A DNA stretch of 64,000 bases from Candidatus Magasanikiibacteriota bacterium (GTDB taxonomy: Bacteria > Patescibacteriota > Patescibacteriia > Magasanikbacterales > UBA922), in assembly GCA_041665025.1 (NCBI GenBank), contig JBAYJP010000001.1, positions 110,555 to 174,554 of the forward strand. Reading direction: 5' to 3'. The translations under genes were made by a program, and so were the position numbers. Position 1 is the first letter of the stretch; each line of letters starts with the position of its first letter. The notes below the pieces were generated by a model. It saw only the letters and a program-made list of their open reading frames with translations. It ran no database searches and was not told the DNA's origin. Below are positions 13,453 through 59,640 of the stretch, in pieces.

Positions 13453-13515
13453 AATAGAACACGAATGAAACAAATTCGTCCAAATTAGTTTAATTCGTTA
13501 AATTCGCGTTCTATA
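13453..13515. repeat. palindromic intergenic repeat, family A (aatagaacacg...gaacgaattcgtt...cgtgttctat)
   Basis: Outer inverted repeat aatagaacacg/cgcgttctat. Related copies at 20097, 21477 and 23292, with a partial copy at 49741. Confidence 0.6.
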
Positions 13516-13520
13516 AACCT

Positions 13521-15236
13521 ATGCAAGAGTTAGAAAATATTGTACTACAAATCATTGAAAAGCATCCTAAAACCAAGGATGATTTTAATGAAGCAAAACG
13601 ACAGATTACATCAAAACTCCAGATAAACTCTCCGTCAAACCGAAATCTTATCTCAGCTTATCAAAATTTATTAAAAAAGAAAAGAGTTGTGAAAGACGTG
13701 GGGTTAGAATTTCTCATGCGCAAGGCCGAAATGCGTACTCTTTCTGGTGTAGCCATCATTACGTCCCTAGTCAAGCCATATGCCTGCCCCGGAGACTGCA
13801 TATATTGCCCTACAGAGGTCAAAATGCCCAAAAGCTATATCGCAACCGAACCAGCCGCCGCACGCGCTCTAGCGCTCAAATTTGACCCCTACGAACAAAT
13901 GCGCAGGCGTATTGAGGTATTGGAACAAAACAACCACCCAACAGACAAGATTGAGTTTATTATCAAAGGCGGAACGTGGAATGCGTATCCCCTTTTATAC
14001 CAATACTGGTTCGTACTAAGGTCGTTCCAAGCATGTAACGATTTGTCACGCAAAAATAAAAGATTAAAAGATTATAAAATTAAAAGATTACCGGACAATC
14101 ACAATCTTTCAATCTTTCAATCTTTCAATCTTGAAGATTTGCAAAATCTTTTAAACACCGAACAACAATATAACGATAAAAAAGCACGTCATAAGATTAT
14201 AGGTGTGACCCTCGAAACCCGTCCAGATGCAATCTCTCCAAAAACAATTTATCACATGCGTCAACAAGGATGCACACGCATTGAACTAGGACTTCAAGCA
14301 CCTGATGATAATATTTTAAAACTTATTAAACGCGGACATACGGTTCAACAATTCAAAGATGCGATGTATTTACTAAGGCAAGCTGGATTTAAAGTTGATT
14401 TGCACTTTATGCCCGCATTGCCAGGATCATCTGCAAAACATGATGTCGAAATGTACAAACAATTATTTTCTGATCCAGGATTGAAGCCTGACATGATAAA
14501 AATATACCCATGCACCGTAATAAAAAATACGGAATTATACACATGGCTACAAAATAAAAAATATAAACCATACGACCAAAAAGATCTTTTTGAAAGTATT
14601 ATTCAAATGAAAATAAACACTCCTCGTTATTGCCGTATTTCTCGACTTATTCGCGATATTCCCGCCAATGAAATTGAGGGCGGAAATATCATTACGAACC
14701 TGCGCGAAGCATTGCAAAGTGAAATGAAGAAGCGAGGATTAAAATGTGAATGTTTGAGGTGCAGAGAAGTGGGACATGTGAGCACTTTAGCACGACAGCA
14801 CTTTAGCACTTTAGCACCGAAACCATTTATTGACGTATACGAAACAAATGGAGGAACGGAGTATTTTTTGAGTTTTGAAGATTCAAAGAGACATGTTGTC
14901 TTTGCCTTTCTACGTCTAAGAATACCAAACCAAAGCCCCTCCATTTTTAAGGGAGGGGTTGGGGGTGGGTTGCTCGATCATCTACCTGAAATGAAAAACT
15001 CTGCATTCATTCGTGAGCTTCATACGTATGGCCAACTTCTTGAACTTGGAGAAAAAAATAAATCTGCAAGTCAACACAAAGGCCTTGGCAAAAAACTTGT
15101 GCAAAAAGCAGAAAAAATCGCAAAGAAAAATGGATATACAAAACTTGCAGTGATTTCAGGAGTAGGCGTCCGTGGCTACTACAGAAAATTAGGATACAAA
15201 AAACGAGGAACATACATGGTTAAAAATATAAAATAA
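13521..15236 (+). CDS. elp3: Elp3-like tRNA uridine(34) acetyltransferase (radical SAM + GNAT)
   Basis: Radical SAM cluster motif YACPGDCIYCP, conserved FDPYEQ...IEFIIKGGTWNAYP, and a C-terminal GNAT with HKGLGKKLV. It carries two in-frame low-complexity insertions (14055-14150; 14775-14815). Confidence 0.85.
   Translation: MQELENIVLQIIEKHPKTKDDFNEAKRQITSKLQINSPSNRNLISAYQNLLKKKRVVKDVGLEFLMRKAEMRTLSGVAIITSLVKPYACPGDCIYCPTEVKMPKSYIATEPAAARALALKFDPYEQMRRRIEVLEQNNHPTDKIEFIIKGGTWNAYPLLYQYWFVLRSFQACNDLSRKNKRLKDYKIKRLPDNHNLSIFQSFNLEDLQNLLNTEQQYNDKKARHKIIGVTLETRPDAISPKTIYHMRQQGCTRIELGLQAPDDNILKLIKRGHTVQQFKDAMYLLRQAGFKVDLHFMPALPGSSAKHDVEMYKQLFSDPGLKPDMIKIYPCTVIKNTELYTWLQNKKYKPYDQKDLFESIIQMKINTPRYCRISRLIRDIPANEIEGGNIITNLREALQSEMKKRGLKCECLRCREVGHVSTLARQHFSTLAPKPFIDVYETNGGTEYFLSFEDSKRHVVFAFLRLRIPNQSPSIFKGGVGGGLLDHLPEMKNSAFIRELHTYGQLLELGEKNKSASQHKGLGKKLVQKAEKIAKKNGYTKLAVISGVGVRGYYRKLGYKKRGTYMVKNIK
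14055..14150 (+). repeat. family E repeat (aagattaaaagatt / caatctttcaatctttc) inserted in-frame in elp3
   Basis: It encodes KRLKDYKIKRLPDNHNLSIFQSFNLED. The same word repeat is intergenic at 30287-30420 and in-frame in tsaE and the GT2 at 38285-38335. Confidence 0.6.
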
Positions 15237-15386
15237 CTCCCCTTCTCAGGGAGTTTTAAATTATTCTAATTAACCTAATTGTTCTAATTATTCTAAATAA
15301 TGACTAGGCTTTGTATAATATTTTGAAATTGAGATTTGTTTTAGGTTAATTAGTATAATTAGAATAATTAGTATAATTAAATTCCA

Positions 15387-16565
15387 CTACATTTCCCCGC
15401 CCACCTTCGTCTTTATTTCTTCCTTCAGTTCTTCAACAAACTCATCAATCCTCTCTTTTGAGATCTGTTGCATCACAACCACATGAGCAAGATCACCCTG
15501 CACCGCGAGCTGATGGCGATGAATGAGTGCTTCAGAAGGCCGTTCAAACACAACAGTCGTAGACCACTTATTCAAAAAGCATTTGGGATAATGTATTGCA
15601 ACCAAACTTTCATATAAATATTGAGCGCGTGCGAGGCAGTCGTACACATCCTTTTTAAAACCTTCCACGCCCCGAGACATAAACGCATACCAAGAAATAA
15701 GCGCAGTATGTCCCCCACGTGAACCACTAATGGTACTATCGTGACTTCCGATATATTCTATTTCATGCGAAATTTTGTCTATGTTCTTTTTGCGCGCAAG
15801 CACTATACCATATGGTATCGGAGAACCTATAAATTTATGTCCGGAAATAGCAACACTATCAATTGACTTAGAAAAATTTATAACTGGAGCGTCGGGCTCA
15901 GAAATAAATGGCAAAATTAAACCAGATAGAGCGCCATCGCAATGAATATAATGCTCTTCAATGCCATTTCGTTTCAATACCTCGAGTATTTCGTCAAGAT
16001 TATCAATCGCTCCTTTTACCGTCGTGCCTATGTTGATTACAACAACAGCAGGGCGTTTGCCATGCTGTTGTAAAATCTTTTCAAATTTTGAGACGTTCAT
16101 CTCCCCATTTTCACAAGAAGGTACGATACTATAATCCAATTGCAAAATATGTGCGCTTTTCTTCAATGAATAATGTGCATCTTCAGAAAAATATAATCGC
16201 GCCTTGGGATATAATTCACGAGCCACAAACAATCCATGCATATTGCCCTCCGTACCGCACGATGCGGTATACCCCCAAAATTCTTCGCGGGGTAATTTGT
16301 ATACATCGGCAAGCCAGTACAAAGCCTCGCGTTCAAATTCACGCGCATGCATCTGGTAATTGCATTCATCAAATGGATCGCCTAAATTATTTAAATTATA
16401 TTTAAATAAAGGAAATATAGGCGAATAGTCAAAATCAAAATTGCACGGAAAACCCATGTGCAGTATCGATTTAGCATGTATTTCTTCTTCAAATTTACTA
16501 AGTCGTTCATTTATCTCTTCTGGTGTCATACAAAATTTAAGAAAATATTGCATCAAGTAAAGCAA
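15387..16565 (-). CDS. hdc: PLP-dependent histidine decarboxylase (group II decarboxylase, Gram-negative HDC type)
   Basis: Near-collinear similarity to Morganella/Klebsiella HDC: WGYTASCGTEGNMHG, NIGTTVKGAIDNL, and the PLP lysine SGHKFIGSPIPYGIVLARK. Confidence 0.8.
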   Translation of the reverse strand: MLYLMQYFLKFCMTPEEINERLSKFEEEIHAKSILHMGFPCNFDFDYSPIFPLFKYNLNNLGDPFDECNYQMHAREFEREALYWLADVYKLPREEFWGYTASCGTEGNMHGLFVARELYPKARLYFSEDAHYSLKKSAHILQLDYSIVPSCENGEMNVSKFEKILQQHGKRPAVVVINIGTTVKGAIDNLDEILEVLKRNGIEEHYIHCDGALSGLILPFISEPDAPVINFSKSIDSVAISGHKFIGSPIPYGIVLARKKNIDKISHEIEYIGSHDSTISGSRGGHTALISWYAFMSRGVEGFKKDVYDCLARAQYLYESLVAIHYPKCFLNKWSTTVVFERPSEALIHRHQLAVQGDLAHVVVMQQISKERIDEFVEELKEEIKTKVGGEM

Positions 16566-16747
16566 AAAATAGAAATACTGTCAACACCGCTTATAGACCT
16601 TGCGAGGAAAAAGAAAGATTTATGACTCCCACAATCATTAATAACAGAGCATTAATTTTTAATACAATATTTTTTCTGTCTATTTCTTCTTCTATAATAT
16701 GCGGAAAAAATAAGGAATATGTATGATAAAAAGTATAGAATAATAGA

Positions 16748-20075: not shown

Positions 20076-20096
20076 TTTTTGAATCTTTGGAATTTA

Positions 20097-20214
20097 AATA
20101 GAACACGGATTGAACTAATTTAACGAATCAAAACGAATTCGTTCAAATTAGTTAGATTAGTTAGATTAGTTAGATTAGTTAGATTAGTTAGATTCGTTTT
20201 ATTCGTGTTCTATT
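20097..20214. repeat. family A palindromic element containing 6 tandem copies of ttagattag
   Basis: aatagaacacggattgaac...gaacgaattcgttcaaatt + (ttagattag)x6 + attcgtgttctatt. Intergenic between the NUDIX gene and glyA. Confidence 0.65.
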
Positions 20215-20229
20215 TTTTAATTTAAAAAT

Positions 20230-21480
20230 ATGAATAAAATTAAATTATCACAATACGATCCAGCTACCCAACAAGCAATACAAAAAGAACTCAATCGCCA
20301 AGAACAAGGTCTTGAGATGATTCCATCTGAAAACTTCGTCTCAATCGCCGTACTCGAAGCGCTTGGATCTGTTTTGACAAACAAATATTCTGAAGGGTAT
20401 GTAGGCAAACGATATTATGGCGGTTGCGAATTTATAGATGAAGTGGAACAACTTGCGATTGACAGAGCAAAACAATTATTTGGCGCGGAACATGTAAATG
20501 TTCAACCACTGTCTGGCGCCCCTGCTAATATTGCAGTGTATTTTGCCTTGCTTGAACCTGGTGACACAATACTCGGAATGGATTTGTCTCATGGCGGACA
20601 CCTTACACACGGGCACCCTGTCACCTACATGACAAAAATATTTAACTTTGTCAGATACAAAACTGATACACAAGGAAAAATAGATTTGGATAATTTGCGC
20701 GAAATGGCGCAGACACACAAGCCAAAGGTTATTCTAGTTGGATACAGCGCGTACTCGCGTGAAATTGAATATGAAAAAATAAAAGCTATTGCAGACGAAG
20801 TTGGCGCAATCACTATGGCAGATATTGCTCACATTGCCGGCCTTATTGCTGCTGGCGAGATGAACAATCCGGTGCCCATTTTTGATGTCGTAACAACTAC
20901 GACGCACAAAACATTGCGAGGTCCTCGCGGCGGTATGATTATGTGCAAAGAAAAATTTGCAAAACAAATTGACAAAGCAGTTTTCCCTGGATTTCAAGGG
21001 GGACCACATGAAAATAATATTGCAGGAAAAGCAATTGCCTTCAAAGAAGCGTTGGAACCTTCTTTCAAAGAATATGCTCAGCAAATAAAAAAGAACGCAA
21101 AAGTATTGGAGAAAAAATTCAATGATTTCGGGTACAAGCTCATGTTTGGGGGAACAGATAATCATTTGCTACTTGTTGATGTATTTGCTTCAAAAGGAGT
21201 GACGGGCAAACATGCCCAAGAAGCTCTAGACAAAGCAGGTATTACAGTAAACAAAAATATGATCCCTGATGATCCGCGAAGTCCTATGGATCCATCAGGT
21301 ATTCGCTTTGGTACACCAGCCCTGACTACGCGCGGAATGAAAGAAGCTGAGATGGAATTGGTTGCAGACTGGATGAACGAGGCAATTATACATTGGGAAG
21401 ATGATGCCAAGCTGACAGAAATTAAACAACGAGTCATAGAATTAACTGCAAAATTTCCTTTATACCCTGAATTACAATAG
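20230..21480 (+). CDS. glyA: serine hydroxymethyltransferase
   Basis: Full-length SHMT: [25 protein letters not shown], the PLP site [14 protein letters not shown] and HLLLVD. Confidence 0.95.
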
Positions 21481-21558
21481 AACGCGAATCTAACGAATTG
21501 AACGAATCGAAACAAATTCGTTCAAATTCGTTAAATTAGTTCAATCCGTGTTCCATTA
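21477..21558. repeat. family A palindromic intergenic element
   Basis: aatagaacgcgaatctaacgaattgaacgaatcgaaacaaattcgttcaaattcgttaaattagttcaatccgtgttccatt. Confidence 0.6.
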
Positions 21559-22749: not shown

Positions 22750-23301
22750 TCATTTGGACGAATACTTACATCCACAATAACTTTGTCTATATATATTTCT
22801 TTCTTCAACCAAACGCCTCCCCTTTTCTTGCCTTCCACCTTTCTTCCAATCAACATCATAAAACTTCAAGCCATACTTTTCAGCTAGCTTTAAACCAATC
22901 GGATGAATAACATCTGATTTTTTATTTCGTCCGCTCGTTAAACTCGTCCCAAAAATATCAAAATCATGTTCTTTTGCATATTGAGCCGTTCGATTCAATC
23001 GTAATGTAAAACACTGAATGCATCGAGCTCCGCCTTCTAGTTCTTTTTCGAGACCAGTAACTTTTTCGTGCCATTTATCTTGCTCATAGTCCATATCCAC
23101 CATGGGCACGTTCCACTCTTCACACACACGAACCACTTCTTTTTTTCGTTTGAGATATTCTTCTTCGGGGTGAATATTTGGATTATAAAAAAAGACAGTC
23201 AAATCGTATTTGCTTTTAAGTTCATCGACAATGGCGATACTACATGGCGCACAGCAGGTATGGAGTAAAAACTTTTGCTTTTGCATAAAATAATAGAACA
23301 C
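22750..23301 (-). CDS. queH: epoxyqueuosine reductase QueH (DUF208)
   Basis: LLHTCCAPCS, a second Cys cluster RCIQCF and a C-terminal YCGCKYS. About 175 aa. Confidence 0.8.
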   Translation of the reverse strand: MFYYFMQKQKFLLHTCCAPCSIAIVDELKSKYDLTVFFYNPNIHPEEEYLKRKKEVVRVCEEWNVPMVDMDYEQDKWHEKVTGLEKELEGGARCIQCFTLRLNRTAQYAKEHDFDIFGTSLTSGRNKKSDVIHPIGLKLAEKYGLKFYDVDWKKGGRQEKGRRLVEERNIYRQSYCGCKYSSK

Positions 23302-23373
23302 GGATTGAACTAATTTAACGAATTTGAACGAATTCGTTTCTATTAGTTTTATTCGTTAAATTCGTGTTCTATT
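23292..23373. repeat. family A palindromic intergenic element
   Basis: aatagaacacggattgaactaatttaacgaatttgaacgaattcgtttctattagttttattcgttaaattcgtgttctatt. Confidence 0.6.
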
Positions 23374-30283: not shown

Positions 30284-30286
30284 ACG

Positions 30287-30420
30287 AATAAAAGATTAAA
30301 AGATTCCGTCTTCGCCCCGAATACCAGGGGCTACGCCGGATAAATTCCAGATTAGAAGATTAATAAAATTTTCTTTCAATTTCTTTATTTCTAGTTTCTA
30401 ATTTCCAGTTTCTTTTAATA
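30287..30420. repeat. family E repeat element (aaagattaaaagatt ... attagaagatt ... tttctagtttctaatttccagtttc) with a GC-rich central hairpin
   Basis: Intergenic. Its 3' end supplies the last codons of ctpA. Confidence 0.55.
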
Positions 30421-35490: not shown

Positions 35491-35510
35491 ACACTAATCG
35501 TATTTTCATT

Positions 35511-35840
35511 TCAAAATAATGATCTAATTTTCGACATCTCAATAACAAGCTGATACAAATCATTCCATTCCGGATTTTCCTTTTTAATTAATGCCATTTT
35601 CTTCTCTCTTCTCCACGTTTTCATTTGACGTTCTCGTTTGAAGGCCTCGTCCATGGAATAATAATGTTCCCAATATACTAATCTGTTTGTCTTATATTTT
35701 TTACTAAAAGAATTTTGATATGTTCCTTTCTTATGCTGCTTAATTCTTGTAACCAGACAATCTGTGAATCCAACATATATAACCCCGCTGATACTTGCTG
35801 TAATATACACATAATAATATTTCCTACTTGATTGTTTCAT
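35511..35840 (-). CDS. GIY-YIG nuclease superfamily protein
   Basis: YYYVYI...GVIYVGFT...R...H... spacing is typical of small GIY-YIG proteins. Confidence 0.75.
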   Translation of the reverse strand: MKQSSRKYYYVYITASISGVIYVGFTDCLVTRIKQHKKGTYQNSFSKKYKTNRLVYWEHYYSMDEAFKRERQMKTWRREKKMALIKKENPEWNDLYQLVIEMSKIRSLF

Positions 35841-35909
35841 ACAATCCTCTATGATTATCCTTCGAAAGATTCCTCGTCGGAATCGAATCCTCCTCGGAAT
35901 GAATGGGCT

Positions 35910-39379: not shown

Positions 39380-39452
39380 AAGTTTTCTAAGTAACTAAGT
39401 TCACTAAGTAACAACTTAGAAAACTTAGCTAACTTAGCTACTTAGACAACTT
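39366..39452. repeat. palindromic intergenic repeat, family C (actaagt / acttagt words)
   Basis: cactaagtttcataagttttctaagtaactaagttcactaagtaacaacttagaaaacttagctaacttagctacttagacaactta. The second copy is at 59540-59640. Confidence 0.6.
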
Positions 39453-40289
39453 ATCGTTGACCCACGCCATAAAAATTCCAATCGGCCTAAGCAATGCAAT
39501 CCACATCCACTTCCACCACGGTTCCCACTTTTTAAAATATATCGACATTGACTTCGTAAACTGTTTTTGTTTCCACAATGTCGTTCTCTTCTTGAAACTC
39601 TGCCCCACATAGTCAACACAAGTGACAACAGGCGTATACATTACTTTCATACCTAACTTTTTTACCTCTCTACAAATATCCACATCTTCAAACCAAAAAA
39701 AATACCTAGGATCCCATGCCCATCCCAATTTTTCTACCACTTCCCGACGCATGAGCATAAAAGCTCCACGCACAGTATCAACTTCCTGTTCTTTTTCAGG
39801 ATCAAAATCTTTCATAAGATACGAATCTAATATCTTAGGGAAGATATGTGGCAATTTGAGAATAAGTGCAATTTGGTTTAAGACCGTTGGAAATCGACGC
39901 GGGCCAGCTTCAGGTTTAAAATTTCCTTGTGTATCAACTAGTTTACAACTTCCAATACCAACGTCTACATGTTCGTCCATCCACTTAACCATAATATCTA
40001 AACTCCCCTCTTGTACGCGCATATCGGGATTCAAAAAAAGGAGATAATGACCTTGTGCTATTTCAACGCCTGTATTATTTGCAGGCCCAAAACCTATGTT
40101 TGCGTTATTTTCAACAACCTTAACATTTGGAAATTCTTTTTTGATATAATCGACAGTGCCATCTTTTGAACCATTATCTGAAATAATTTCTTCACATATT
40201 ATTTCTTTACAACCCTTAAAAACCGAGTTTATTTGCTCGGTGATATTTTTTTTATTATTCCATGTAACAGTTATAATTGATAAGTTCAT
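39438..40289 (-). CDS. glycosyltransferase family 2
   Basis: LSIITVTWNN...IISDNGSKDGT, FEDVD. Confidence 0.8.
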   Translation of the reverse strand: MNLSIITVTWNNKKNITEQINSVFKGCKEIICEEIISDNGSKDGTVDYIKKEFPNVKVVENNANIGFGPANNTGVEIAQGHYLLFLNPDMRVQEGSLDIMVKWMDEHVDVGIGSCKLVDTQGNFKPEAGPRRFPTVLNQIALILKLPHIFPKILDSYLMKDFDPEKEQEVDTVRGAFMLMRREVVEKLGWAWDPRYFFWFEDVDICREVKKLGMKVMYTPVVTCVDYVGQSFKKRTTLWKQKQFTKSMSIYFKKWEPWWKWMWIALLRPIGIFMAWVNDKLSK

Positions 40290-40373
40290 AAAGGAACACA
40301 GATGTAACTGATTAAACAGATTTTCCCAGATTACAAATCTGTTTCCAACTGTCTAATCTATTGGATCTGTGTA

Positions 40374-45378: not shown

Positions 45379-45915
45379 TTAATGTGAAAAATAATAATGT
45401 GTAAGCGCCCACGCAGCCATAGTTTGTCCATCCCAAATTTCATTATTTCGTATCATATTATCCACTTCATCTGGACGACGATAGAGCAATTCAATTTCTT
45501 CCGTATCATCTGTATGTTGCTCATGTTGTTCAGTTACATGCACGAGAAATACGTGACACGTTTCTTTTATCAGACCATTGGCAGTTTCAAATGTTCCCAT
45601 TTTTACAAATTCTTTTGCGGTGTATCCAGTTTCCTCAGAAAGTTCGATTTGTGCAGCCTCAAGCGGAAGTATACCTTTCCTTACCCCGCCACCGGGAAAT
45701 TCAACGCTCTGTTTGTCAACTAGATATCTATGTTGCAGTGTAAGCACTAACCGGCCATCGGGCAATACGGGAACAAGCATGACCATGCCTGGAGTTTCTC
45801 CATAATAATAATCGCCTATTTGCCCATTTGGTTTTTCATACGTATCATGCTTATACGTCCACCAAGGATTTTCGTGCAATATTTCTTCGGTAAGTTTTTT
45901 TAAGTGTTTGGGCAT
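45379..45915 (-). CDS. NUDIX hydrolase (ADP-ribose pyrophosphatase-like)
   Basis: PGGGVRKGILPLEAAQIELSEETGY. Confidence 0.8.
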   Translation of the reverse strand: MPKHLKKLTEEILHENPWWTYKHDTYEKPNGQIGDYYYGETPGMVMLVPVLPDGRLVLTLQHRYLVDKQSVEFPGGGVRKGILPLEAAQIELSEETGYTAKEFVKMGTFETANGLIKETCHVFLVHVTEQHEQHTDDTEEIELLYRRPDEVDNMIRNNEIWDGQTMAAWALTHYYFSH

Positions 45916-45917
45916 AA

Positions 45918-46781
45918 TTAGGTTTCACAATCAAATGATCCTTGTACGACCAATTTTTTCAAAAAATCTACTCTTTTCTTTAACATTAAACGGTAACGTC
46001 TACTTTTGTCTTCCGAGGATCTCAAATCTCCCATATCAAGTATGTGTATTCCTTTAATCTCACCACCTATTTTATTAATACAAAGGTTAAAATCGCCCAT
46101 TGTCTCAACCATATAACCTGTTTTTTCAAAATAGTCTAAAGTTATACATGTAAATTTTCTTAATTGTCTGTTAAATTCCGAATTTACTGATGCTATTCTT
46201 AAAAGATCTTCTACAGTATAACTAAAAAAATTTGACAACTTCCCCTCAACTAGTCTTTGAATCATTGCGGCTCTTGGTTCATTTGAAAATGGATCGTTAA
46301 TTATAAAGTTTGCAGACTCTGGAATTATTTCTGAAATAGATGCATATATCTCTCTTAGCTTTTCATAATTCGTTTGAAAATGCTTTGCTACATCTACCAG
46401 GCTACCCCCTTTTTGTGGTGGAAATAACAACTTCAGCGCCCAAGAAGGACCCTTGTGCTTATTTTTTAGTAGATATACTTTTGCTTCTCCCCCGCCACCT
46501 ATTCTCTCCGAGAATTCATATTTATTAGGGTCAAAGGGTAAATGTTCCACATATTGACGTTTAAAATAACGTTCAACAACTTCTCGACCCAAACCTTCTG
46601 GAGCATATACTAATGCTGCGCGGATTAATGAAACTAAACGGGCATAACGACCTGATGATTCATCATTTAATCTACGCCACAACTCTCCGGTCCCTTTTGG
46701 ACAAGGACCTCTTTCACATGATTCTTCTACTGCGCTAGACAACTTACGCACAAAATGAGGCAATCTATCCCTTTCTATCAT
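45918..46781 (-). CDS. hypothetical protein with protein-kinase-like features
   Basis: Gly-rich loop IGGGGEAKVYLL followed by WALKLL (VAIK-like), later HILDMGDL. The fold assignment is tentative. Confidence 0.35.
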   Translation of the reverse strand: MIERDRLPHFVRKLSSAVEESCERGPCPKGTGELWRRLNDESSGRYARLVSLIRAALVYAPEGLGREVVERYFKRQYVEHLPFDPNKYEFSERIGGGGEAKVYLLKNKHKGPSWALKLLFPPQKGGSLVDVAKHFQTNYEKLREIYASISEIIPESANFIINDPFSNEPRAAMIQRLVEGKLSNFFSYTVEDLLRIASVNSEFNRQLRKFTCITLDYFEKTGYMVETMGDFNLCINKIGGEIKGIHILDMGDLRSSEDKSRRYRLMLKKRVDFLKKLVVQGSFDCET

Positions 46782-46794
46782 ATCCTATTATGGG

Positions 46795-47199
46795 CTAAGC
46801 AAATAAAGTACTAATTTCTTGAACACTCGTGTGCCCCGGCGCATTTACAATAGCATGCATATTACTGCCACCATCGTCATTCCATCGCGGTATAATATGA
46901 ATGTGCAAATGCGGGACTACCTGTCCGCCGGCCTCGCCATGATTCCATCCTACATTATATCCGTCTGGCTGGAGCACATGATCGATTTTTTCTTGCGTGC
47001 GTTTTACTGCAGTCATCAAAAATCCTAAGAGCTCATCATTAAGTTCAAGTAGTGTTTCTGTATGCAATTTGGGGACAACGACCGCATGACCTTTCGCGCG
47101 CGGGTAGATATCCAAAAAAGCAAGCACATGATCATCTTCGTACACGGTGTAGTTTGGAATTTCTTTTTTTATAATTTTGCAAAAAATACAATTGTCCAT
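46795..47199 (-). CDS. HIT (histidine triad) family hydrolase
   Basis: CIFCKI...HLHIHIIPR histidine triad. Confidence 0.85.
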   Translation of the reverse strand: MDNCIFCKIIKKEIPNYTVYEDDHVLAFLDIYPRAKGHAVVVPKLHTETLLELNDELLGFLMTAVKRTQEKIDHVLQPDGYNVGWNHGEAGGQVVPHLHIHIIPRWNDDGGSNMHAIVNAPGHTSVQEISTLFA

Positions 47200-47212: not shown

Positions 47213-47279
47213 GTTCATAGCCAATAGCCAATAATTCATAGTCGTCAACCTATTGGCTATGAACTACTGGCTATGAACT
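47213..47279. repeat. palindromic intergenic repeat, family B (gttcatagccaatag ... ctattggctatgaac)
   Basis: Copies also at 52804-52887 and 58161-58234. Confidence 0.6.
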
Positions 47280-49662: not shown

Positions 49663-49795
49663 GGAGCTACGCCCCGCGGGATTGGAGGATCCCCGGGGCG
49701 ATTGCGTTTTATAACACAGATTGCACAGAATAAAAAGGAAACACGGATTACTATTTCGGTGTATTCCTTGTCATTCCGTGTAATCCGTGTTCTAT

Positions 49796-50440
49796 CTATA
49801 CACCATGTCTAAACAAACTCACAAGCGCAAACCCGACTGACAACCCCAAAATTCCACTTGCAAATCTCAAAAATACTTCATTATCAAATACGAGTGCGAT
49901 AAGGATGGCGCACACTGCTAAAACCTGCAAAAACATTTTTATCTTTCCCCACAAATTTGCCATACGTACGGTCTTGAACTTCACATGAGCAACATATGCA
50001 CTGGCAATAAATATTATTTCAATGCCAAGTACAGCGATTCCAAGCCAAAAATTTAAATACTTAAAAACTAACAACAGCACCATGGAACCAATCAAAAATT
50101 TGTCCGCGAGTGGATCAATAAGCATGCCAAATTTGGTTATTTTGTTTTGAGTGCGTGCGAGAGATCCATCAAGCGCGTCAGTAAATGCAACTACTAAAAA
50201 TAAACCAACCCCTGTCTTGTAGTATCCATAAAGTATGGTGAAAAATACTACAGGGGTTGCGATAATGCGAAATATACTTATTTTGTTTGGCGTAATAGCA
50301 GATGGAAGCAATTTTAAAAATGTGCGGGCCAAAAAATAATCATGGGGATGAACTTCCTCTGCTTTGAGATAGGTGAACAAATCGTGGTTACGTTCCTTGA
50401 ACCGTTTGATAAAATTCATATTTTTCGCTAAACTATACAT
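49796..50440 (-). CDS. CDP-alcohol phosphatidyltransferase family protein (native AT-rich copy)
   Basis: AFTDALDGSLARTQNKITKFGMLIDPLADK motif and multiple TMs. Confidence 0.75.
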   Translation of the reverse strand: MYSLAKNMNFIKRFKERNHDLFTYLKAEEVHPHDYFLARTFLKLLPSAITPNKISIFRIIATPVVFFTILYGYYKTGVGLFLVVAFTDALDGSLARTQNKITKFGMLIDPLADKFLIGSMVLLLVFKYLNFWLGIAVLGIEIIFIASAYVAHVKFKTVRMANLWGKIKMFLQVLAVCAILIALVFDNEVFLRFASGILGLSVGFALVSLFRHGV

Positions 50441-50551
50441 ATCTTACCTAAGATTGGGGAAAAAATCAATAACGAATCAACATAAAGTTGCACTTTGTGA
50501 GGGGCTAAAGTATACATAATTAGTCTAGACGCATGAGTGGTACGCCCCCTT

Positions 50552-50595
50552 GAAACAGGGTTTTGGCCCGCCGCGGCGGGCCAAAACCCTGTTTC
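50552..50595. repeat. perfect 44-bp palindrome gaaacagggttttggcccgccg|cggcgggccaaaaccctgtttc
   Basis: Exact 22+22 inverted repeat with a GC-rich core, in the divergent intergenic region between 49796..50440(-) and the membrane protein (+). Confidence 0.7.
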
Positions 50596-50667
50596 ATAAA
50601 TCCGAGCCTAAAGATAGTTCCATATCACCATGCATACACGAGGATTTATTCCACGGACTACAAAAAT

Positions 50668-52803
50668 ATGAATATACAGAAAAATAAAATTATTTCTTTA
50701 ACCATTTTCGGAATTATTTTGTGCATACTCAATATTTTTGTAGTGCACAGTGTTGTGATAGGCATAATAGGAATAGCATTGTACGCAACACAGCTTAGTA
50801 AATGGATAGGACATCTTGCTTTTACGAAATACGAAAGATTTGGAAAAAAATTATTTGGTTTTGTCATTCTCACGGGAATCATAATGACACTCAATGTACT
50901 TGTATATTACCCATACAAATTAACCACACTCACCACCATTATAATCCTATTAATCCCCTGTTTTCTCTTTTTTATAAAATCAAATCAGGAGAAGAGCACA
51001 AATGACAGTCCATGGGTCATGGAACGTTCACACGCCATGCAAACACTATTGTTTGTGGCTATAGATATAGCTCTTATTTATATTCTCACACAAAACAGCA
51101 CAACTGATGTTCTGCCATCTCCATGGATGAATATCAAACCCTGGTTTTTTATTTTATACGCAATCGCGACCGTAATATTACTCCATACCGTATCTGTCTC
51201 GCGACATGTTGGTAAAAGTATTGCACTTATTTCACTACATTTGTTTGTTACGTATAGCGTCGCATCGATTATCTATACACTTGGTTATGGATTTGATGGT
51301 TTTATCCATCGTGCCACAGAAACCTGGATTTTAAACAATGGGTTTATTACACCAAAACAACCATTTTATATTGGACAATACGGGCTCGTAGTGTGGCTTT
51401 CGCAGATCACACATATTTCAATTAAGATACTCGATATATATCTCGTGCCAGTCTTAACATCTCTCACACTTCCATTTTTTGTATATCACGCATTGCGATA
51501 CACGTGGAATATAGCGCAAGGCATTGCATTAAATCTTACATGGCTTTTGCCCTTTTTATTTTTCTTATCTTTTTATTTTACCACGCCACACAATTTAGCC
51601 TTACTATTTTTTATACTCGCCGTATTTGCAACAATTTCGTATGCAAAAGAAAAAATGCCATTCATTGTCCCTGGTGTTCTCTGTATAATGGCATCAATAA
51701 CACACCCACTTATTGGAGCACCGCTCTGTGTTTTTGTCTTTATTGCATTTGTTATACGAAAAATAAAAAACAAGTCTATTTCAGTTGTACTATCTATTTT
51801 TAATGGGATATCTATTGCGCTTGTACCGATTATTTTATTTACTCTGTTTCTTTTTATACATCATAATCCCCTTCCGAGCATTCAAAATCCTTTTACATTT
51901 GAACAAGTCCAGAGATTTACAGAATTAGTTGCACGTCCACATTGGTACATTGCACATGCGCCCATTATATTTGAATTACTTTACCTATGGCATGACGCTA
52001 TAATTCCGCTGGTAGTTATTATCGGCCTTGTTGGATTTTTTATAAAAAAAGAAAAGACATACATAGATTATCTCCTTATTTCTTCCTCACTTGGTTCTTT
52101 TATTGGCGCATGGTTATTGCGTACATGGGTTGTACTGCCCAATTTACTTGAAGAAGAACAAGCATCCTACCCTTTGCGCCTTTTGAGCATGGGGCTTCTT
52201 TTCCTCATGCCATTTTCAATGTATGGGCTATACGCCTTAGGCACGTGGTTTATGGAGAAAATAAAAAAATCCCGCAGCGAGCGGGATCCCGCTGTAGCGG
52301 GACAGCACATAGTAAAAGCATTATATATTCTTGGAGCAAGCGCACTTTTGATGGTTTCATTTTATTTTTCATATCCACAGCGCAATCCAAAAGTTTGGTT
52401 TCCCGGATTTAATGTTTCTCAAGCTGACTTTAGTGCCGTGGAGTGGATTCGCAATCAACATACTGATTATAATTATGTCGTGCTTTCAAATCCTATTACT
52501 GCCATGGCTGCTCTCACCAATTATAATTTTGTAAAACATTTCCAAACGCAAGAGCAAGGCGAATTATTTTATTATTCAATCCCAAGCGGTGGATATTTGT
52601 ACCGCATGTATTTGAACATGCTGTATGAAGTTCCCAAAGAACAATTTGTAGACGAAGTTAAAAAAACAACAGGGGTTGACACGGTTTATTTTGTGGTAAA
52701 TTCATATTGGGGAAGTTTCAAAAAAATTGTGGAAGAGCACAAAAAAACTGCCAAATCATGGCAGTCGATTGATGACGGAAAAGTGATGATATTTACTTAC
52801 TAA
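50668..52803 (+). CDS. large polytopic membrane protein (GT-C/O-antigen polymerase-like candidate)
   Basis: The start is placed at MNIQKNK because the upstream extension covers the palindrome. About 15 TMs, then a C-terminal soluble domain. Confidence 0.5.
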   Translation: MNIQKNKIISLTIFGIILCILNIFVVHSVVIGIIGIALYATQLSKWIGHLAFTKYERFGKKLFGFVILTGIIMTLNVLVYYPYKLTTLTTIIILLIPCFLFFIKSNQEKSTNDSPWVMERSHAMQTLLFVAIDIALIYILTQNSTTDVLPSPWMNIKPWFFILYAIATVILLHTVSVSRHVGKSIALISLHLFVTYSVASIIYTLGYGFDGFIHRATETWILNNGFITPKQPFYIGQYGLVVWLSQITHISIKILDIYLVPVLTSLTLPFFVYHALRYTWNIAQGIALNLTWLLPFLFFLSFYFTTPHNLALLFFILAVFATISYAKEKMPFIVPGVLCIMASITHPLIGAPLCVFVFIAFVIRKIKNKSISVVLSIFNGISIALVPIILFTLFLFIHHNPLPSIQNPFTFEQVQRFTELVARPHWYIAHAPIIFELLYLWHDAIIPLVVIIGLVGFFIKKEKTYIDYLLISSSLGSFIGAWLLRTWVVLPNLLEEEQASYPLRLLSMGLLFLMPFSMYGLYALGTWFMEKIKKSRSERDPAVAGQHIVKALYILGASALLMVSFYFSYPQRNPKVWFPGFNVSQADFSAVEWIRNQHTDYNYVVLSNPITAMAALTNYNFVKHFQTQEQGELFYYSIPSGGYLYRMYLNMLYEVPKEQFVDEVKKTTGVDTVYFVVNSYWGSFKKIVEEHKKTAKSWQSIDDGKVMIFTY

Positions 52804-52887
52804 GCCAATAGCCAATAGTTCGTAGCCAATAAATATCGCCCAAAACTCTATTGGCAATTGGCTATTGGCTCTGAACTATTGGCTATA
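52804..52887. repeat. family B palindromic intergenic element
   Basis: aagccaatagccaatagttcgtagccaat...ctattggcaattggctattggctctgaactattggctat. Confidence 0.6.
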
Positions 52888-54105
52888 AAGACTTACAAGC
52901 TTTTCAATATATTTCTCCTGCGTCAGCCCAGACAACATCTGGGTTGTTTTATTACTCATGATATGCAAATCTTGCGGATGTTCTATAGCCCATTTCATTT
53001 TCTCTGCAAGAGACGCCACATTCCCCGCTTCAAATGTAATACCACTCTCCCCTTCTTCAATAAGTTCGGCAATACCCTCGATGCGGCTGGCAAGAACCGG
53101 AATATGAAAAAATAAACTTTCAAAAATCACGGTCGGAGAATTTTCATAACATAACGATGGCACAACGGTTACATTCATGCGAGAAAATAATTCTGGCAAT
53201 TTATCCCGTTCCACACGCCCATGTACCGTAATATGCACGTTACCTTTTGTTTTTTCAATGACTTCATCTAACTGTGAACCATTTCCCACAATATGCAAAT
53301 GAATTTGTTTTTGCATGTCCAACTGAATATTTTTAAATGCTTCTATAAGCAAAAAAATACCTTTATGCGTCTCTATTTGCCCAAGATACAAAAAATTAAA
53401 CAGATCATTTCCCTGTTTCCTGTTCCCTGTTCCCTGTTCCCTGCTCTCCAATGTAAAGTCAAACGTCAATGGATTTCTCACCACTACTGTCTTTGACAAC
53501 GGAAAAAATCCTCGCTTGGTATAAAAGTCTAACAAAAATTGCGAAGGAGAAATGACAACCTGTGGCGAACCCATGAGTTTTTTCATAACCCACGTATATA
53601 TTTTTGTAGGAAACCCAGTATAACGCCATGAATGTTCCCTGTCTTTCAAAATCATCGCACTTGGTTCTACCAATTGCACGTCATGCACGGTATGGATATG
53701 ACGCAAACCAAGTTTGCGAATGACAGATGGAATAAAAAATGATAGGCCAATAAGATTATGCGTATGCACAATATCTGGTTTTTCTTTTTCCAAAATATTT
53801 TTTACCCAGCTGGCCGTAGAAAAATTAAAAATATCGCATACATGCCATATAAAACGTACCATACCGCTATGTTTGTGCGCGTCAGTATAAAAATACACAT
53901 TCGGCGGCCTGCGACGATAAATGGTCGTGTGTTCGTGACGTTCACTAAAATCCCCTCGCGGGGCACTGGTAATAATGACCACATCGTGACCTTGGGCAAC
54001 CAAACCCTGCGCAGACTTAACTACAACCTGCTCAGCTCCGCCACGGTGATAAGGAGGATAGATGTTGTTGATGATGCACACTTTCATAGCTCTGTAATAA
54101 TACAA
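52876..54105 (-). CDS. glycosyltransferase family 4 (GT-B)
   Basis: MKVCIINNIYPPYHRGGAEQ and a C-terminal E-x7-E-like EGIAELIEEGESG. It contains an in-frame family H repeat (EQGTGNRKQGND). Confidence 0.8.
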   Translation of the reverse strand: MYYYRAMKVCIINNIYPPYHRGGAEQVVVKSAQGLVAQGHDVVIITSAPRGDFSERHEHTTIYRRRPPNVYFYTDAHKHSGMVRFIWHVCDIFNFSTASWVKNILEKEKPDIVHTHNLIGLSFFIPSVIRKLGLRHIHTVHDVQLVEPSAMILKDREHSWRYTGFPTKIYTWVMKKLMGSPQVVISPSQFLLDFYTKRGFFPLSKTVVVRNPLTFDFTLESREQGTGNRKQGNDLFNFLYLGQIETHKGIFLLIEAFKNIQLDMQKQIHLHIVGNGSQLDEVIEKTKGNVHITVHGRVERDKLPELFSRMNVTVVPSLCYENSPTVIFESLFFHIPVLASRIEGIAELIEEGESGITFEAGNVASLAEKMKWAIEHPQDLHIMSNKTTQMLSGLTQEKYIEKLVSLYSQ

Positions 54106-54124
54106 AAATTCCTAATTCACCCAT

Positions 54125-54240
54125 GCATAATTCAAATCTCAAACGTCAAAAGTCAAAACTGCAACTAAAAATTTAAAAGTTTATATATTTGAGTTTTCAT
54201 TTTGAGTTTTGAGATTTGACTTTTGAATTTTATTTGCACC
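54125..54240. repeat. family D palindromic element (overlaps the 3' end of the methyltransferase gene)
   Basis: ctcaaacgtcaaaagtcaaaactgcaactaaaaatttaaaagtttatatatttgagttttcattttgagttttgagatttgacttttga. Its right half encodes the methyltransferase C-terminus KIQKSNLKTQNENSNI. Confidence 0.6.
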
Positions 54241-55146
54241 TATCGTCCAATGCCATCCTAGATGCTTAAACCCTGGAATCTTGAATAACATTTCATCAAC
54301 CGCCACGATTCCTTTTTCCAACCATAATGGCAAAACGATTCTCTTTTTAAGTTTGAATGCGCGAAAGGTAAATTCCAAAATATATTGTATCCATCCTGCA
54401 AACAACCACATAGGACGTACCGAAACTTTTTCCCATTTTCCTTCATGCAATACATAATTTATTTTTCTATAAGAAAATCCTGTCATTTCAGCGTCTGCGT
54501 GAGATACATTGTGTTCATCAGTGTGAGTCAGTCGTGACATGATGGGACGAATTATTTTCAGAGGCAAAAAATATGTTTTATTTGGCTCAACCCAAATACA
54601 CAGTTTGCCACCAGATTTCAAAACACGCGCAAATTCTTTCAAAGCTTCGCCATAATCTGAAAAATGATGCCAGACGGCGACCATATACAGTGAATCAAAC
54701 GTATTGTCTGCAAACGGCAAGTGCATACCATCTGCCGCAACATAGGTAGCATTTGTAGAATGTAATTTTGTAGAAAGTCGTTCCAGTGTTTTGGAAGAAA
54801 TATCAGACAACACCATTTTGTAATCAGGTAGGAAATGTTGCGCGTCATGTCCGCTCCCTGCGCCAATTTCCAAAATCAGACTGCCGGGTCGCAATTCTTT
54901 TATTGCACTGTGCAATCGAGTGTGATAATACACATTTCTCCATGCATTGAGCTGGTGCACGTTGTTGGCATCATCTTCCAAATGATCGTGATACTCTGCT
55001 TCTTCCTTTGCAAGTTCACCTAGTTCAGTTGGTAAGGCAACAATGACATTATTTTTCTTTTCATATACTTTTCCACATGAACAAATATAGCTTTGTCCGG
55101 GGATAAGCTCTTTCATTTCATTGTGACAGTCGGTGCAGATAAACAT
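54181..55146 (-). CDS. class I SAM-dependent methyltransferase with N-terminal zinc-ribbon
   Basis: CTDCHNEM...CSCGKVYE ribbon and motif I LEIGAGSGHDAQHF. Flanked on both sides by family D elements. Confidence 0.75.
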   Translation of the reverse strand: MFICTDCHNEMKELIPGQSYICSCGKVYEKKNNVIVALPTELGELAKEEAEYHDHLEDDANNVHQLNAWRNVYYHTRLHSAIKELRPGSLILEIGAGSGHDAQHFLPDYKMVLSDISSKTLERLSTKLHSTNATYVAADGMHLPFADNTFDSLYMVAVWHHFSDYGEALKEFARVLKSGGKLCIWVEPNKTYFLPLKIIRPIMSRLTHTDEHNVSHADAEMTGFSYRKINYVLHEGKWEKVSVRPMWLFAGWIQYILEFTFRAFKLKKRIVLPLWLEKGIVAVDEMLFKIPGFKHLGWHWTIGANKIQKSNLKTQNENSNI

Positions 55147-55149
55147 ACT

Positions 55150-55238
55150 TTAAATCTCAAAATTCAAATATCAAAAGTCAAAACTACAACTAAAAACTTA
55201 AAAGTTTATAGTTTTGAGATTTGACTTTTGAGTTTTCA
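55150..55238. repeat. family D palindromic element (immediately upstream of the methyltransferase start)
   Basis: aaatctcaaaattcaaatatcaaaagtcaaaactacaactaaaaacttaaaagtttatagttttgagatttgacttttgagttttcaa. Confidence 0.6.
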
Positions 55239-55636
55239 ACGCTCAGTATACCACATTTTAGAATAAAAAAACTACTTTTCTATAGTAGTCATTCGTGCTG
55301 ATATGGAGTGTGTCGCGCGCCCGGTGACGGCGGCGGAACGCCTAGCGACATCCAGAATTGGATGCCACCGTCACCGGGACACGCGCGGATCAGCGATCGA
55401 AGGCCTTGCCGCTTCCGGTTCTGCTCGCGATGTACGCGCATCGGCACTGCCGTGCCTCCTCGCGACTTGCGTGCGAACCGCTGCAGAAGCGACACGCCTT
55501 GACCCGCCGATTCTTGCTCTTGCTGGGACGAGGCATCCCAACCTCCTTCCTCGCGCGCCTCCGTGGCGCGCACAATGGTTCACATCATACACAAAAAAAG
55601 TCCAGATGTCAATCTGGACTGTAAAAAAATACAAAA

Positions 55637-57853: not shown

Positions 57854-58162
57854 ATGCTTATGTTCAATAAGTTAAAACAATTCAAAGACCTCCGTAGTCA
57901 GGCAAAAACATTACAAAATACCTTGTCTCAAGAGAGTATTACGGTTCGCGCAGCTGGAGATCAGGTTGTACTTACAATGGATGGCAACCTCACGTTGACT
58001 GGTCTTGCAATTGACGATGCACTTCTGGCACCCGACAAAAAAGACAAACTTCAAAATGCAATCAAAGAAGCTCATGCAGATGCACTCAAAAAAATGCAAC
58101 GCATCATGGCAATGAAGATGAAAGAAATGGGGGGTTTACCTAACATTCCAGGACTAAACTAG
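57854..58162 (+). CDS. ybaB: nucleoid-associated protein YbaB/EbfC
   Basis: About 100 aa, ...GDQVVLTMDGNLTLTGLAIDDALLAPDKKDKLQNAIKEA pattern. Located immediately upstream of recR. Confidence 0.85.
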   Translation: MLMFNKLKQFKDLRSQAKTLQNTLSQESITVRAAGDQVVLTMDGNLTLTGLAIDDALLAPDKKDKLQNAIKEAHADALKKMQRIMAMKMKEMGGLPNIPGLN

Positions 58163-58234
58163 TTCGTAGTTCATAGCCAATAGCCAATAGTTTACAATCG
58201 CCAATTTATTGGCTGTGAACTATTGGCTATGAAC
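58161..58234. repeat. family B palindromic intergenic element
   Basis: agttcgtagttcatagccaatagccaatag...ttattggctgtgaactattggctatgaac. Confidence 0.6.
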
Positions 58235-58238
58235 TTCT

Positions 58239-58838: not shown

Positions 58839-58868
58839 AATCCTCCCGAATTTGGGAGGATTTATTTT
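58839..58868 (+). terminator. hairpin aatcctcccgaatttgggaggatt + T-run (recR terminator)
   Basis: Perfect 9-bp stem followed by TTATTTT. Its 3' arm (GGGAGG) doubles as a possible SD for the next ORF. Confidence 0.6.
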
Positions 58869-59096
58869 ATGGGAACGGCTGGCCTCGAGCATTTGCTTGG
58901 CTCGAGTGGGTGGGTTGTGGAGCCGAATGGAGCTCCTGCCCAAGACCAGCCGATCGACTGCCACAGGTTGTTCGCTAGCGACCCTGTATCGGAATTTCCG
59001 GGGACGGGAAGCTTTCCGTCCTGCCCAGGGGCTGCAAAAACCTACGACAAATCGACGAAGCACCTTATCACAAAGACGATAAAATGTCGACAATAA
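58869..59096 (+). CDS. small hypothetical protein on GC-rich island E
   Basis: ATG 10 nt after GGGAGG. About 58% GC. Followed directly by the terminator aaaacccgcgtctttgcgggttttt. Coding status is uncertain. Confidence 0.35.
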   Translation: MGTAGLEHLLGSSGWVVEPNGAPAQDQPIDCHRLFASDPVSEFPGTGSFPSCPGAAKTYDKSTKHLITKTIKCRQ

Positions 59097-59125
59097 AACC
59101 CGCGTCTTTGCGGGTTTTTATTTTT
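59096..59125 (+). terminator. rho-independent terminator aaaacccgcgtctttgcgggtttttattttttt
   Basis: Perfect GC stem plus a long T-run. Confidence 0.65.
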
Positions 59126-59137
59126 TTATTCTGTTTA

Positions 59138-59452
59138 CTAAGCTACTTTCGCTATCTTCACTTTCGTAAAATGCTGTCTATGTCCATGTACTTTGTGATA
59201 ACGAATTTTTCTCTTGTATTTAACTACTCTAATCTTTTTAGCTCTGGCTTGTTCTTCTACAGACGCAGTCACTTTTGCACCAGAAACATATGGAGCGCCA
59301 AGCTGTATATTTAGACCATCTTCATCGCTAAGAAGCAATACCTGGTCAAAAACAGCTTCTTTACCTGCTTCAAGAGCTAATTTCTCTATTCTTAAGGTGT
59401 CACCAGCCTTTACCAGATACTGTTTTCCACCTGTTGCAATAACGGCTAACAT
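59138..59452 (-). CDS. rplU: 50S ribosomal protein L21
   Basis: MLAVIATGGKQYLVKAGDTLRIEKL is a classic L21 N-terminus. 104 aa. Confidence 0.9.
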   Translation of the reverse strand: MLAVIATGGKQYLVKAGDTLRIEKLALEAGKEAVFDQVLLLSDEDGLNIQLGAPYVSGAKVTASVEEQARAKKIRVVKYKRKIRYHKVHGHRQHFTKVKIAKVA

Positions 59453-59539
59453 AATTTTTAAATTTAGATTATTAGATAATTGGTATTAGGGAAACGGTGA
59501 TAGTTTAGCTCATTTAAAAAGAAAAGTCAAGGGGTTGGA

Positions 59540-59640
59540 TAAGTTGACTAAGTTTTCTAAATTTACTAAGTATCTAAGTTATAGAAAACCAATCACAACT
59601 TAGCCAACTTAGGTACTTAATAAACTTAGTTACTTTGGTA
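59540..59640. repeat. family C palindromic intergenic element (actaagt/acttagt words)
   Basis: gttgactaagttttctaaatttactaagtatctaagttatagaaaaccaatcacaacttagccaacttaggtacttaataaacttagttac. Confidence 0.6.

Follow-up and report, generated by a model that had tools for sequence, protein, structure and literature searches.

Genomes of the Candidate Phyla Radiation (CPR)/Patescibacteria are small and streamlined, yet in a stretch of 64,000 nucleotides from a Candidatus Magasanikiibacteriota bacterium (assembly GCA_041665025.1, contig JBAYJP010000001.1, positions 110,555 to 174,554 of the forward strand; hereafter the window) long hairpins fill about one third of the spacers between genes. These elements, referred to here as word hairpins, occupy approximately 20 of approximately 60 spacers, and one more lies in frame within a gene. 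Each is an imperfect palindrome of 58–121 nt in which either arm is a tandem array of family-specific words of 7–9 nt. Tandem Repeats Finder gives a period of 7–10 for the arms of every element, and the stems are formed by arms of 22–44 nt with 72–92% complementarity, which pair in register, irregular 7/9/9 spacing included. Eighteen firm elements of the window each fold as a single long hairpin, with z-scores of -2.8 to -11.2 in comparison to dinucleotide shuffles; a candidate nineteenth hairpin (30286–30413) is weak (z -1.8). The original prediction for this DNA, made from the letters alone, had proposed four families (A to D) of long intergenic palindromes built of short words, together with an inverted pair around a small gene at 5221–5574, and had suggested folding as a check. 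The families and the pair exist where they had been placed, their seed words occur far above chance, and folding bears out the palindromes; every copy proposed is real, but the list was short by at least six elements, namely hairpins at 2518–2585, 14057–14133, 15259–15379, 40296–40372, and 60110–60185 and a 54-nt inverted pair at 35449–35502 and 35850–35903. The family A seed AATAGAACACG has 11 matches with at most one mismatch (1.3 expected; none of 100 shuffles equaled this), while with at most two mismatches the family B seed GTTCATAGCCAATAG has nine (0.09 expected) and the family D seed TCAAAAGTCAAAACT has 11 (0.54 expected). A 16-kb extension of the same contig holds further copies of B and D and two more families; at least 12 unrelated word families are present in the 80 kb formed by the window and its extension. 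A search of the window with Rfam found one tRNA only and no match for the elements, and the window has no rRNA gene.

One member of the window carries a gene. A 117-aa four-helix-bundle protein (PF05635, 23S_rRNA_IVP; TIGR02436, E 1.6e-27) is encoded at 5221–5574 on the plus strand, which is the strand of both neighbors, and its gene fits exactly into the loop between the arms of a word-type inverted repeat. The left arm (5170–5205) consists of period-9 words AGCTTTCTAGGCT... (inverted-repeat score 14.5, z 5.4) and the right arm (5579–5613) of AAAGCTTAG words, also of period 9; the two pair over 29 nt with 79% complementarity (5170–5198 with 5585–5613). The bracketing proposed for this gene was thus correct, and small genes of selfish type are likewise enclosed in relatives. 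This can be seen in a comparison set made up of the window and 80 related loci (numbered L in what follows), 1.31 Mb in total with about 20 kb per relative. In the Magasanikbacteria loci, all eight testable four-helix-bundle genes were found within inverted word arrays (scores 14.5–26, z 5.4–13.7); the same inverted-repeat score was reached by 21 of 564 other small open reading frames (ORFs; 3.7%) and 5 of 300 larger ORFs (1.7%). The top-scoring of these control ORFs are DUF559, GIY-YIG, and GxxExxY (TIGR04256) genes, themselves inside inverted repeats. In its full-size members, this class has a single small gene placed precisely in the loop and on the strand of the host genes, and the cargo of word-built arms is most often a TIGR02436/PF05635 four-helix-bundle gene and once (L092) a GxxExxY gene. 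The cargo gene lies on the strand of both neighbors in 14 of 14 tandem contexts; this co-orientation suggests that the cargo gene depends on host transcription, and under it transcription would read through an arm.

The GIY-YIG and DUF559 genes have arms of other sequence types, GC-rich for DUF559 genes and TGTCAT...ATGACA for GIY-YIG genes. Each keeps its own type of inverted repeat across species, which argues that arms and cargo travel together. In the window, a 109-aa GIY-YIG nuclease-domain protein (PF01541) is encoded at 35511–35840 on the minus strand, again the strand of both neighbors, between the arms of a 54-nt inverted repeat of the TTCATCCCGAG... type (35449–35502 and 35850–35903). 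Palindromes of the same type as these GIY-YIG-enclosing repeats form a second, GC-richer, nested class (TGTCATTCCCGCGAAAGCGGGAATC...GATTCCCGC...ATGACA) that is common among relatives (L005:9870, L022:13939 and 17491, L036:3040, L048:3640, L049:54 and 9472, L058:14904, and L061:5721); the last of these lies in frame within an ELP3-like gene, where it is read as ...SWIPAFAGMT....

The link between gene-carrying and gene-less copies is most direct for family B. The arms around the four-helix-bundle gene of L035 are family B arms, matching all four gene-less B copies of the contig as well as copies in L004 and L089. Three of the four lie in the window: 47213–47279, with GTTCATA/GCCAATA heptamers (z -8.4), 52803–52890 between convergent genes (z -6.3), and 58161–58236 between ybaB and recR (z -6.9). 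The fourth is at ~65085, just past the window. Across the loci as a whole, four-helix-bundle genes lie within many unrelated word families. The site upstream of glyA holds a gene-less family A element in the window and in L010, while in L085 it holds a TIGR02436 gene within inverted ATTTAAGATTGCAGAATGCAGAATA arms, which are unlike the family A words. The arms of the L092 GxxExxY gene were considered as a partner for families A and E, with which they share ACGAAT/CCGAAT words; the match was too weak to claim.

Family A provides the clearest record of how the short copies behave. In the window it is present in a divergent spacer (13453–13515), upstream of glyA on the plus strand (20096–20215; z -7.8, with an internal (ATTAGTTAG)x5.8 expansion), in the glyA-tsaE spacer on the minus strand (21476–21557), where it provides the glyA stop codon, and between queH and an mgsA-like gene on the plus strand (23292–23373; z -6.2). 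The element at 21476 is inverted relative to those at 20096 and 23292, so the family is found in both orientations. Copies within the window are 86–91% identical over their whole length, and the termini AATAGARCRCG/CGYGTTCYATT are conserved in six copies from four genomes. A partial or related copy at 49740–49797 has CACGGATT words and one GTTCTAT terminus, and adjoins a GC-rich hairpin. The closest relative is L085, in which GlyA is 93% identical. Its spacer orthologous to that of 13453–13515 is only ~3 nt long and lacks the element, and at the site of 23292–23373 it has an extra ORF of ~105 aa and unknown family (12379–12774, minus strand). The glyA-tsaE element of the window, by comparison, is shared with L085 and L150. 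Its copies in the window and L085 are ~81% identical, as against 40% identity at the four-fold degenerate sites of glyA, so the element is under constraint or is homogenized. Within a genome, copies at different sites are more alike (86–91%) than these orthologues (~81%), which points to concerted evolution or to recent spread within the genome. The number and order of words vary among copies of one family and between species, and slippage probably lies behind the changes in word number. Taken together, the short copies form homologous families that have been copied or homogenized within the genome, with gains and losses at single spacers, and the elements are held far above neutral divergence. 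The proposal that they are like repetitive extragenic palindromic (REP) sequences or MITEs, the miniature transposable elements with inverted repeats, is a fair description, since they are dispersed, stand in both orientations, differ in presence between close relatives, and recur in other species.

That recurrence is broad. The relatives identified through GlyA among GTDB genomes are nearly all Candidatus Magasanikbacteria or Patescibacteria, and the window together with the 80 loci contains 112 long hairpins, compared with 2 in shuffled sequence, at a density about 25 times greater in spacers than in coding sequence. The detector was ungapped, so these counts are lower bounds; a gapped self-BLAST was dropped as a means of counting because it was too noisy. 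When the window elements were used as queries, there were 59 matches in other species, with ~2.4 expected (12 from a five-fold shuffled query set), and hairpins of the same build but with other words occur in many relatives. The outcome named beforehand as damaging to the prediction, elements restricted to the window with no conservation of structure, is therefore not what was found. Copies of family A occur in L010, L085, and L150, of family B in L004, L035, and L009, and of family D in L064, L033, and L059. In the last three, single-arm arrays with words as in the window families also stand without a partner (L064:9903, L033:8911, L059:10567), and in relatives direct-repeat word arrays are found directly upstream of start codons. 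GC-rich mini-hairpins are nested at the exact center of the family A elements of L010, L085, and L150. At L033:8911–8937, family D heptamers encode the residues VKSQKSKVK of an ELP3-like gene. Directly 3′ of glyA, a long AT-rich hairpin is present in L020 (11255–11385), L022 (~11260–11360), L026 (11259–11362), L051 (11243–11347), and L076 (2918–3022); its loop has a conserved GC-rich structured motif (GAGCGGGTT...GCCC-loop-GGGC...AAAGCG) with no Rfam match at the gathering score.

The remaining hairpins of the window share the same build. Family D, with TCAAAAG/TCAAATC/TCAAAAC heptamers that recur in its copies in L064, L033, and L059, is present at 8632–8735 (z -4.4), at 54123–54232, where the methyltransferase gene at 54181–55146 draws its C-terminal tail from the right arm, and in a divergent spacer at 55152–55240 (z -5.4). 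Such contributions are common, with elements supplying the stop codons, start codons, or C-terminal tails of neighboring genes. Of the two family C hairpins (ACTAAGT, period 9), that at 39366–39455 (z -6.7) overlaps one gene at its start codon and the next at its 3′ end, and the other lies at 59537–59632 (z -2.8). Family E (TACGAAA words, termini ATGTA...TACAT) is represented at 60110–60185 by the most stable hairpin of the window (dG -35.3, z -11.2), and a related copy directly follows glyA in L049. The family F hairpin (TAATTAG/TCTAATTA, period 9) at 15259–15379 adjoins a classical terminator (15237–15258) and is missing from L085, and a family G hairpin (ACAGATT/ACAGATG words) is found at 40296–40372 (z -6.2). 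The hairpin that lies within a gene has AAAGATT words (14057–14133, z -4.9); it is in frame in the variable linker of an ELP3-like radical-SAM gene and is kept in L085. A hairpin with ATAGATG/CATCTAT words (2518–2585; dG -25.5, z -5.6) occupies the spacer before a VirD4/TraG-like gene. This gene (2581–5166), immediately upstream of the four-helix-bundle cassette, is for a coupling protein of VirD4/TraG/TrwB type (DUF87, T4SS-DNA_transf), unusual for a reduced CPR genome.

Outside CPR, the association of four-helix-bundle genes with inverted arrays was also seen in a small set of 11 genes, consisting of 10 cyanobacterial plasmid genes and one Azospirillum gene in a 23S rRNA intervening sequence. 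Nine of the 11 lie within inverted heptamer arrays (z at least 5) in this set, which is without a matched control; arrays also flank the other two, but not in inverted arrangement. The arms of the Azospirillum intervening sequence are GGACGGA/GGACAGA heptamers. In several cyanobacteria, four-helix-bundle genes with heptamer arms are inserted in CRISPR-Cas operons, with cas6 and cas4 or cas10 and cmr3 on either side: L166 (Pseudanabaena pPg_01, 45668–47152), L170 (Anabaena sp. 90 pANA02), and L168 (Picosynechococcus).

The closest parallel among known systems is with the 23S rRNA intervening sequences of Coxiella, Leptospira, Salmonella, and Azospirillum. These are alike in having a long terminal inverted-repeat stem, an optional PF05635/TIGR02436 ORF in the loop that runs in the direction of the host transcript, short versions without a gene, and arms of tandem heptamers (GACAGAT in Coxiella, GGACGGA/GGACAGA in Azospirillum). 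In Coxiella, the intervening sequence combines a terminal stem of 28 bp with an S23p ORF and GACAGAT heptamers of variable copy number, and it is cut by RNase III; its origin is described as unresolved (PMC4990558). Of the insertions in CPR rRNA genes that are not introns, some encode GIY-YIG and 23S_rRNA_IVP proteins and others are short and lack a gene (PMC11270868). Unlike the 23S rRNA intervening sequences, the window elements lie between or within protein-coding genes rather than in helix 25 or 45 of the rRNA, a single genome has many word families, and RNase III excision would be assumed by analogy. Rickettsia palindromic elements are similar in their mostly extragenic placement with occasional in-frame insertion in genes, as at 14057–14133 and in the ELP3-like gene of L061. 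The window elements, small and non-coding (63–120 nt in family A), resemble MITEs in the conserved terminal inverted repeats of family A, in their two orientations, and in their presence or absence at orthologous sites (the 13453 spacer, the 23292 site, and the F element in comparison with L085). Unlike MITEs, they show no target-site duplication, a weak test in AT-rich flanks; the only arm-sharing partner found, for family B in L035, carries a four-helix-bundle gene, and none of the cassettes carries a transposase. REP sequences and REPINs (20–40 nt, 5′ GTAG, RAYT Y1 transposase) differ in that the window elements are word arrays of 60–120 nt, no GTAG motif is present, and the 80 kb have no PF01797-type gene. 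Eukaryotic Foldback (FB) transposons are kilobase-sized elements with long inverted arms of short tandem units, variable arm length, and a loop that is empty or carries genes; their likeness to the window elements is one of architecture only, with no sequence relation.

Heptamer arrays form another group of relevant repeats. Cyanobacterial heptamer tandem-repeat sequences, the short tandemly repeated repetitive (STRR) sequences, were reportedly described by Mazel et al. in 1990. The GGGAATC arrays of Xanthomonas form 70–75 inverted pairs of unknown function (PMC4692102), and TAACTGA heptamer arrays are intergenic in Beggiatoaceae (PMC4679880). All of these are similar to the word hairpins in having intergenic family words of ~7 nt, variable copy number, and inverted pairs capable of forming stem-loops; unlike them, the CPR words are AT-rich and have a period of 7–9, and inverted pairing is the rule. 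Neither the Xanthomonas report (PMC4692102) nor the Beggiatoaceae report (PMC4679880) links the arrays to a cargo gene; the terms ‘S23’, ‘four helix’, and ‘intervening’ are absent from the former and were not searched for in the latter.

From these observations, it seems moderately probable that the repeats of the window are gene-less members of an intervening-sequence-like foldback class that is common in Candidatus Magasanikbacteria. According to such a model, the host operon would transcribe the elements, and RNase III, by analogy with intervening sequences, would cut their stems of 22–40 bp, thereby separating the flanking cistrons and releasing the mRNA of any cargo gene; stem lengths of at least 20 bp are compatible with excision by RNase III. 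Gene-less and gene-carrying copies might be linked by deletion of the cargo, or by homing of cargo into empty copies through homology of the arms. A broader proposal, which we put forward only tentatively, is that there is one cross-phylum class of hairpin mini-cassettes, whose empty copies are seen as 23S intervening sequences, as the heptamer arrays of STRR and Xanthomonas type, and as the word hairpins of CPR. Its cargo may comprise TIGR02436 genes in the loops of word arrays and GIY-YIG, DUF559, and GxxExxY genes in cassettes that are mostly not word-built; it may spread by homing or gene conversion into hairpins of the same family, or into hairpin tips; and it may be tolerated because RNase III removes the elements from host RNA.

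Several observations weigh against the foldback interpretation. Four-helix-bundle proteins are not known to be enzymes, and no transposase or RAYT (PF01797-type) gene was found in the 80 kb. No gene-carrying partner for families A, C, or D was found in the ~20 kb per relative, and a search for ORF remnants in the gene-less family B loops gave spurious short matches only. The DUF559 gene of the window (61803–62186, minus strand; Vsr-like endonuclease domain) has palindromes on one side only, a GC-rich nested cluster at 62208–62292 (CCTCCCCTAGTAGGGGAGG, GGTGAGG...CCTCACC, CCCTCTCC...GGAGAGGG), while DUF559 genes of relatives have palindromes of this type on both sides. Covariation within family A amounts to one compensatory pair, the termini being invariant and the interior not alignable in register. 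No target-site duplication was seen at 13453, 20096, 21476, or 23292 or at the filled and empty sites of L085, although such a test has little power in flanks that are AT-rich. The arms of word hairpins show no sense-strand asymmetry (numbers below) that would speak for a function at the level of RNA. Finally, heptamer arrays are common anyway in the cyanobacterial genomes that contributed to the set outside CPR.

The main alternative, which is rather unlikely, reverses the order of events: the hairpins would have come first, as non-mobile structures grown in place by slippage and arm-to-arm correction and kept for a useful stem-loop, and selfish genes would have inserted in their tips. The differing number and order of words among copies of a family would fit such growth, as would the arrays that have a single arm and no partner. 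Insertion into tips would likewise fit the mini-hairpins at the centers of family A elements and the occurrence of four-helix-bundle genes inside many unrelated word families, and insertions of all kinds in CPR rRNA are mostly at stem-loop tips or bases (PMC11270868). Growth in place would not, however, yield family A copies at different sites that are 86–91% identical over their whole length, with conserved 11-nt termini and in both orientations. The presence of the same families at non-orthologous sites of different species, and the constancy with which GIY-YIG and DUF559 genes each keep their own repeat type across species, also speak against it. A role in ending transcripts, which the original prediction had raised in the form of bidirectional terminators, is improbable, whether the elements are thought of as bidirectional intrinsic terminators poor in T-tracts or as stabilizers of mRNA 3′ ends, adapted to a compact and AT-rich genome. 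The elements do fill the space from stop codon to start codon and are kept well above neutral divergence, and downstream of glyA the place is taken in relatives by a classical terminator or by a word hairpin, or is empty, so that the niche of the elements overlaps that of terminators. Their features are nevertheless not those of classical terminators. The arms average 23 nt and 26% GC, the loops are 10–50 nt long, and a run of at least five T within 8 nt downstream follows only 9.6% of word hairpins. In co-directional spacers, sense-strand G·U and A·C mismatches number 35 and 30 in word hairpins (p=0.62), unlike the ordinary hairpins of the same loci (57 and 35). Word hairpins occupy 11% of tandem, 7% of divergent, and only 5% of convergent spacers, and they are oriented without regard to gene strand. 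Where genes are in tandem, only 3–23 nt separate the end of the hairpin from the following start codon, too few for a promoter. A scan for sigma-70 promoters gave 57 sites with 55.4 expected and is uninformative in such AT-rich DNA. Moreover, classical terminators with a GC stem and T-run coexist with the elements in the window, separate from them, and a homologous hairpin is in frame inside the ELP3-like gene.

Two further explanations fare worse than these when set beside the foldback interpretation. It is very improbable that the word arrays serve sequence-specific proteins as binding sites (operators, nucleoid organizers, or single-strand binders with a footprint of ~7 nt) and that palindromy is secondary. 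The conservation of the same words across species well above neutral expectation would be expected of binding sites, and the direct-repeat arrays immediately upstream of start codons in relatives, together with the resemblance to the intergenic TAACTGA arrays (PMC4679880), point in the same direction. Yet with at least 12 unrelated families of words within 80 kb, a reduced CPR genome would have to encode a large number of dedicated binding proteins. The genes beside the elements show no apparent regulon logic, and the arms pair in register even where their spacing is irregular. The original prediction had also suggested recombination sites that move or invert gene-sized cassettes such as glyA or the tsaE-queH block, on the ground that several genes are flanked by copies of one family. 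The content between the ELP3-like gene and glyA does vary, the two being adjacent in many loci but separated in the window by 5 kb, which F and A elements border. Against this, bracketing of housekeeping genes by the same family is at the level of chance (three adjacent pairs, 1.9 expected; permutation P=0.30), the 80 kb have no integrase or recombinase, and the orientation of glyA and its ELP3 neighbor are kept across 50 loci. The genes truly enclosed by one inverted pair are only those of small selfish type, so bracketing holds for these and not for housekeeping genes, and movement of housekeeping cassettes is the least credible of the explanations weighed here. TIGR-Tas guide arrays were also considered. 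Those consist of tandem repeat-spacer units with box C/D-like motifs beside a Tas (Nop-domain) gene (PMC12045711), and they could be ruled out because the window elements stand singly, as hairpins scattered among housekeeping genes, and the 80 kb have no Nop-domain gene.

Intergenic repeats of palindromic form are already known, as are intervening sequences and heptamer arrays. A search of the literature on CPR intergenic repeats and on the flanks of four-helix-bundle genes found no description of the elements reported here. In relation to that literature, what appears to be new is the word-built hairpin system of CPR and its siting between protein-coding genes, as well as the enclosure by inverted repeats of four-helix-bundle genes in CPR and cyanobacteria and of small nuclease genes in CPR. 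With about one third of the spacers of the window occupied and divergence held far from neutral, the hairpins are a significant feature of genome organization in a major uncultivated lineage. The link with four-helix-bundle genes bears on the origin and spread of 23S rRNA intervening sequences, on the role of the very common proteins annotated as ‘four helix bundle’ or S23p, and on the nature of the heptamer arrays of cyanobacteria and Xanthomonas. In practical terms, metagenome assemblies will probably break at such repeats, and gene callers are likely to be misled by them.

Some other repeats of the window differ from the word hairpins. Tandem word arrays without an inverted partner are found inside coding regions at 14781–14829, 38292–38327, and 53409–53443; among such single arrays are (AGCACTTT)x4.6 in the ELP3-like gene, (CTTTTAAT)x4.6, and (TTCCCTG)x5 in a glycosyltransferase gene. 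The classical terminator sequence AAAATCCCCTCTTCGGGGATTTT is present twice, at 9990–10014 and 12722–12744, 2.7 kb apart, and canonical terminators may thus also be copied in this genome. The intergenic region upstream of a 711-aa gene that ends at 52803 has a perfect 46-bp palindrome without a spacer (50551–50596; TGAAACAGGGTTTTGGCCCGCCG followed directly by CGGCGGGCCAAAACCCTGTTTCA), which is GC-rich and unlike the word hairpins.

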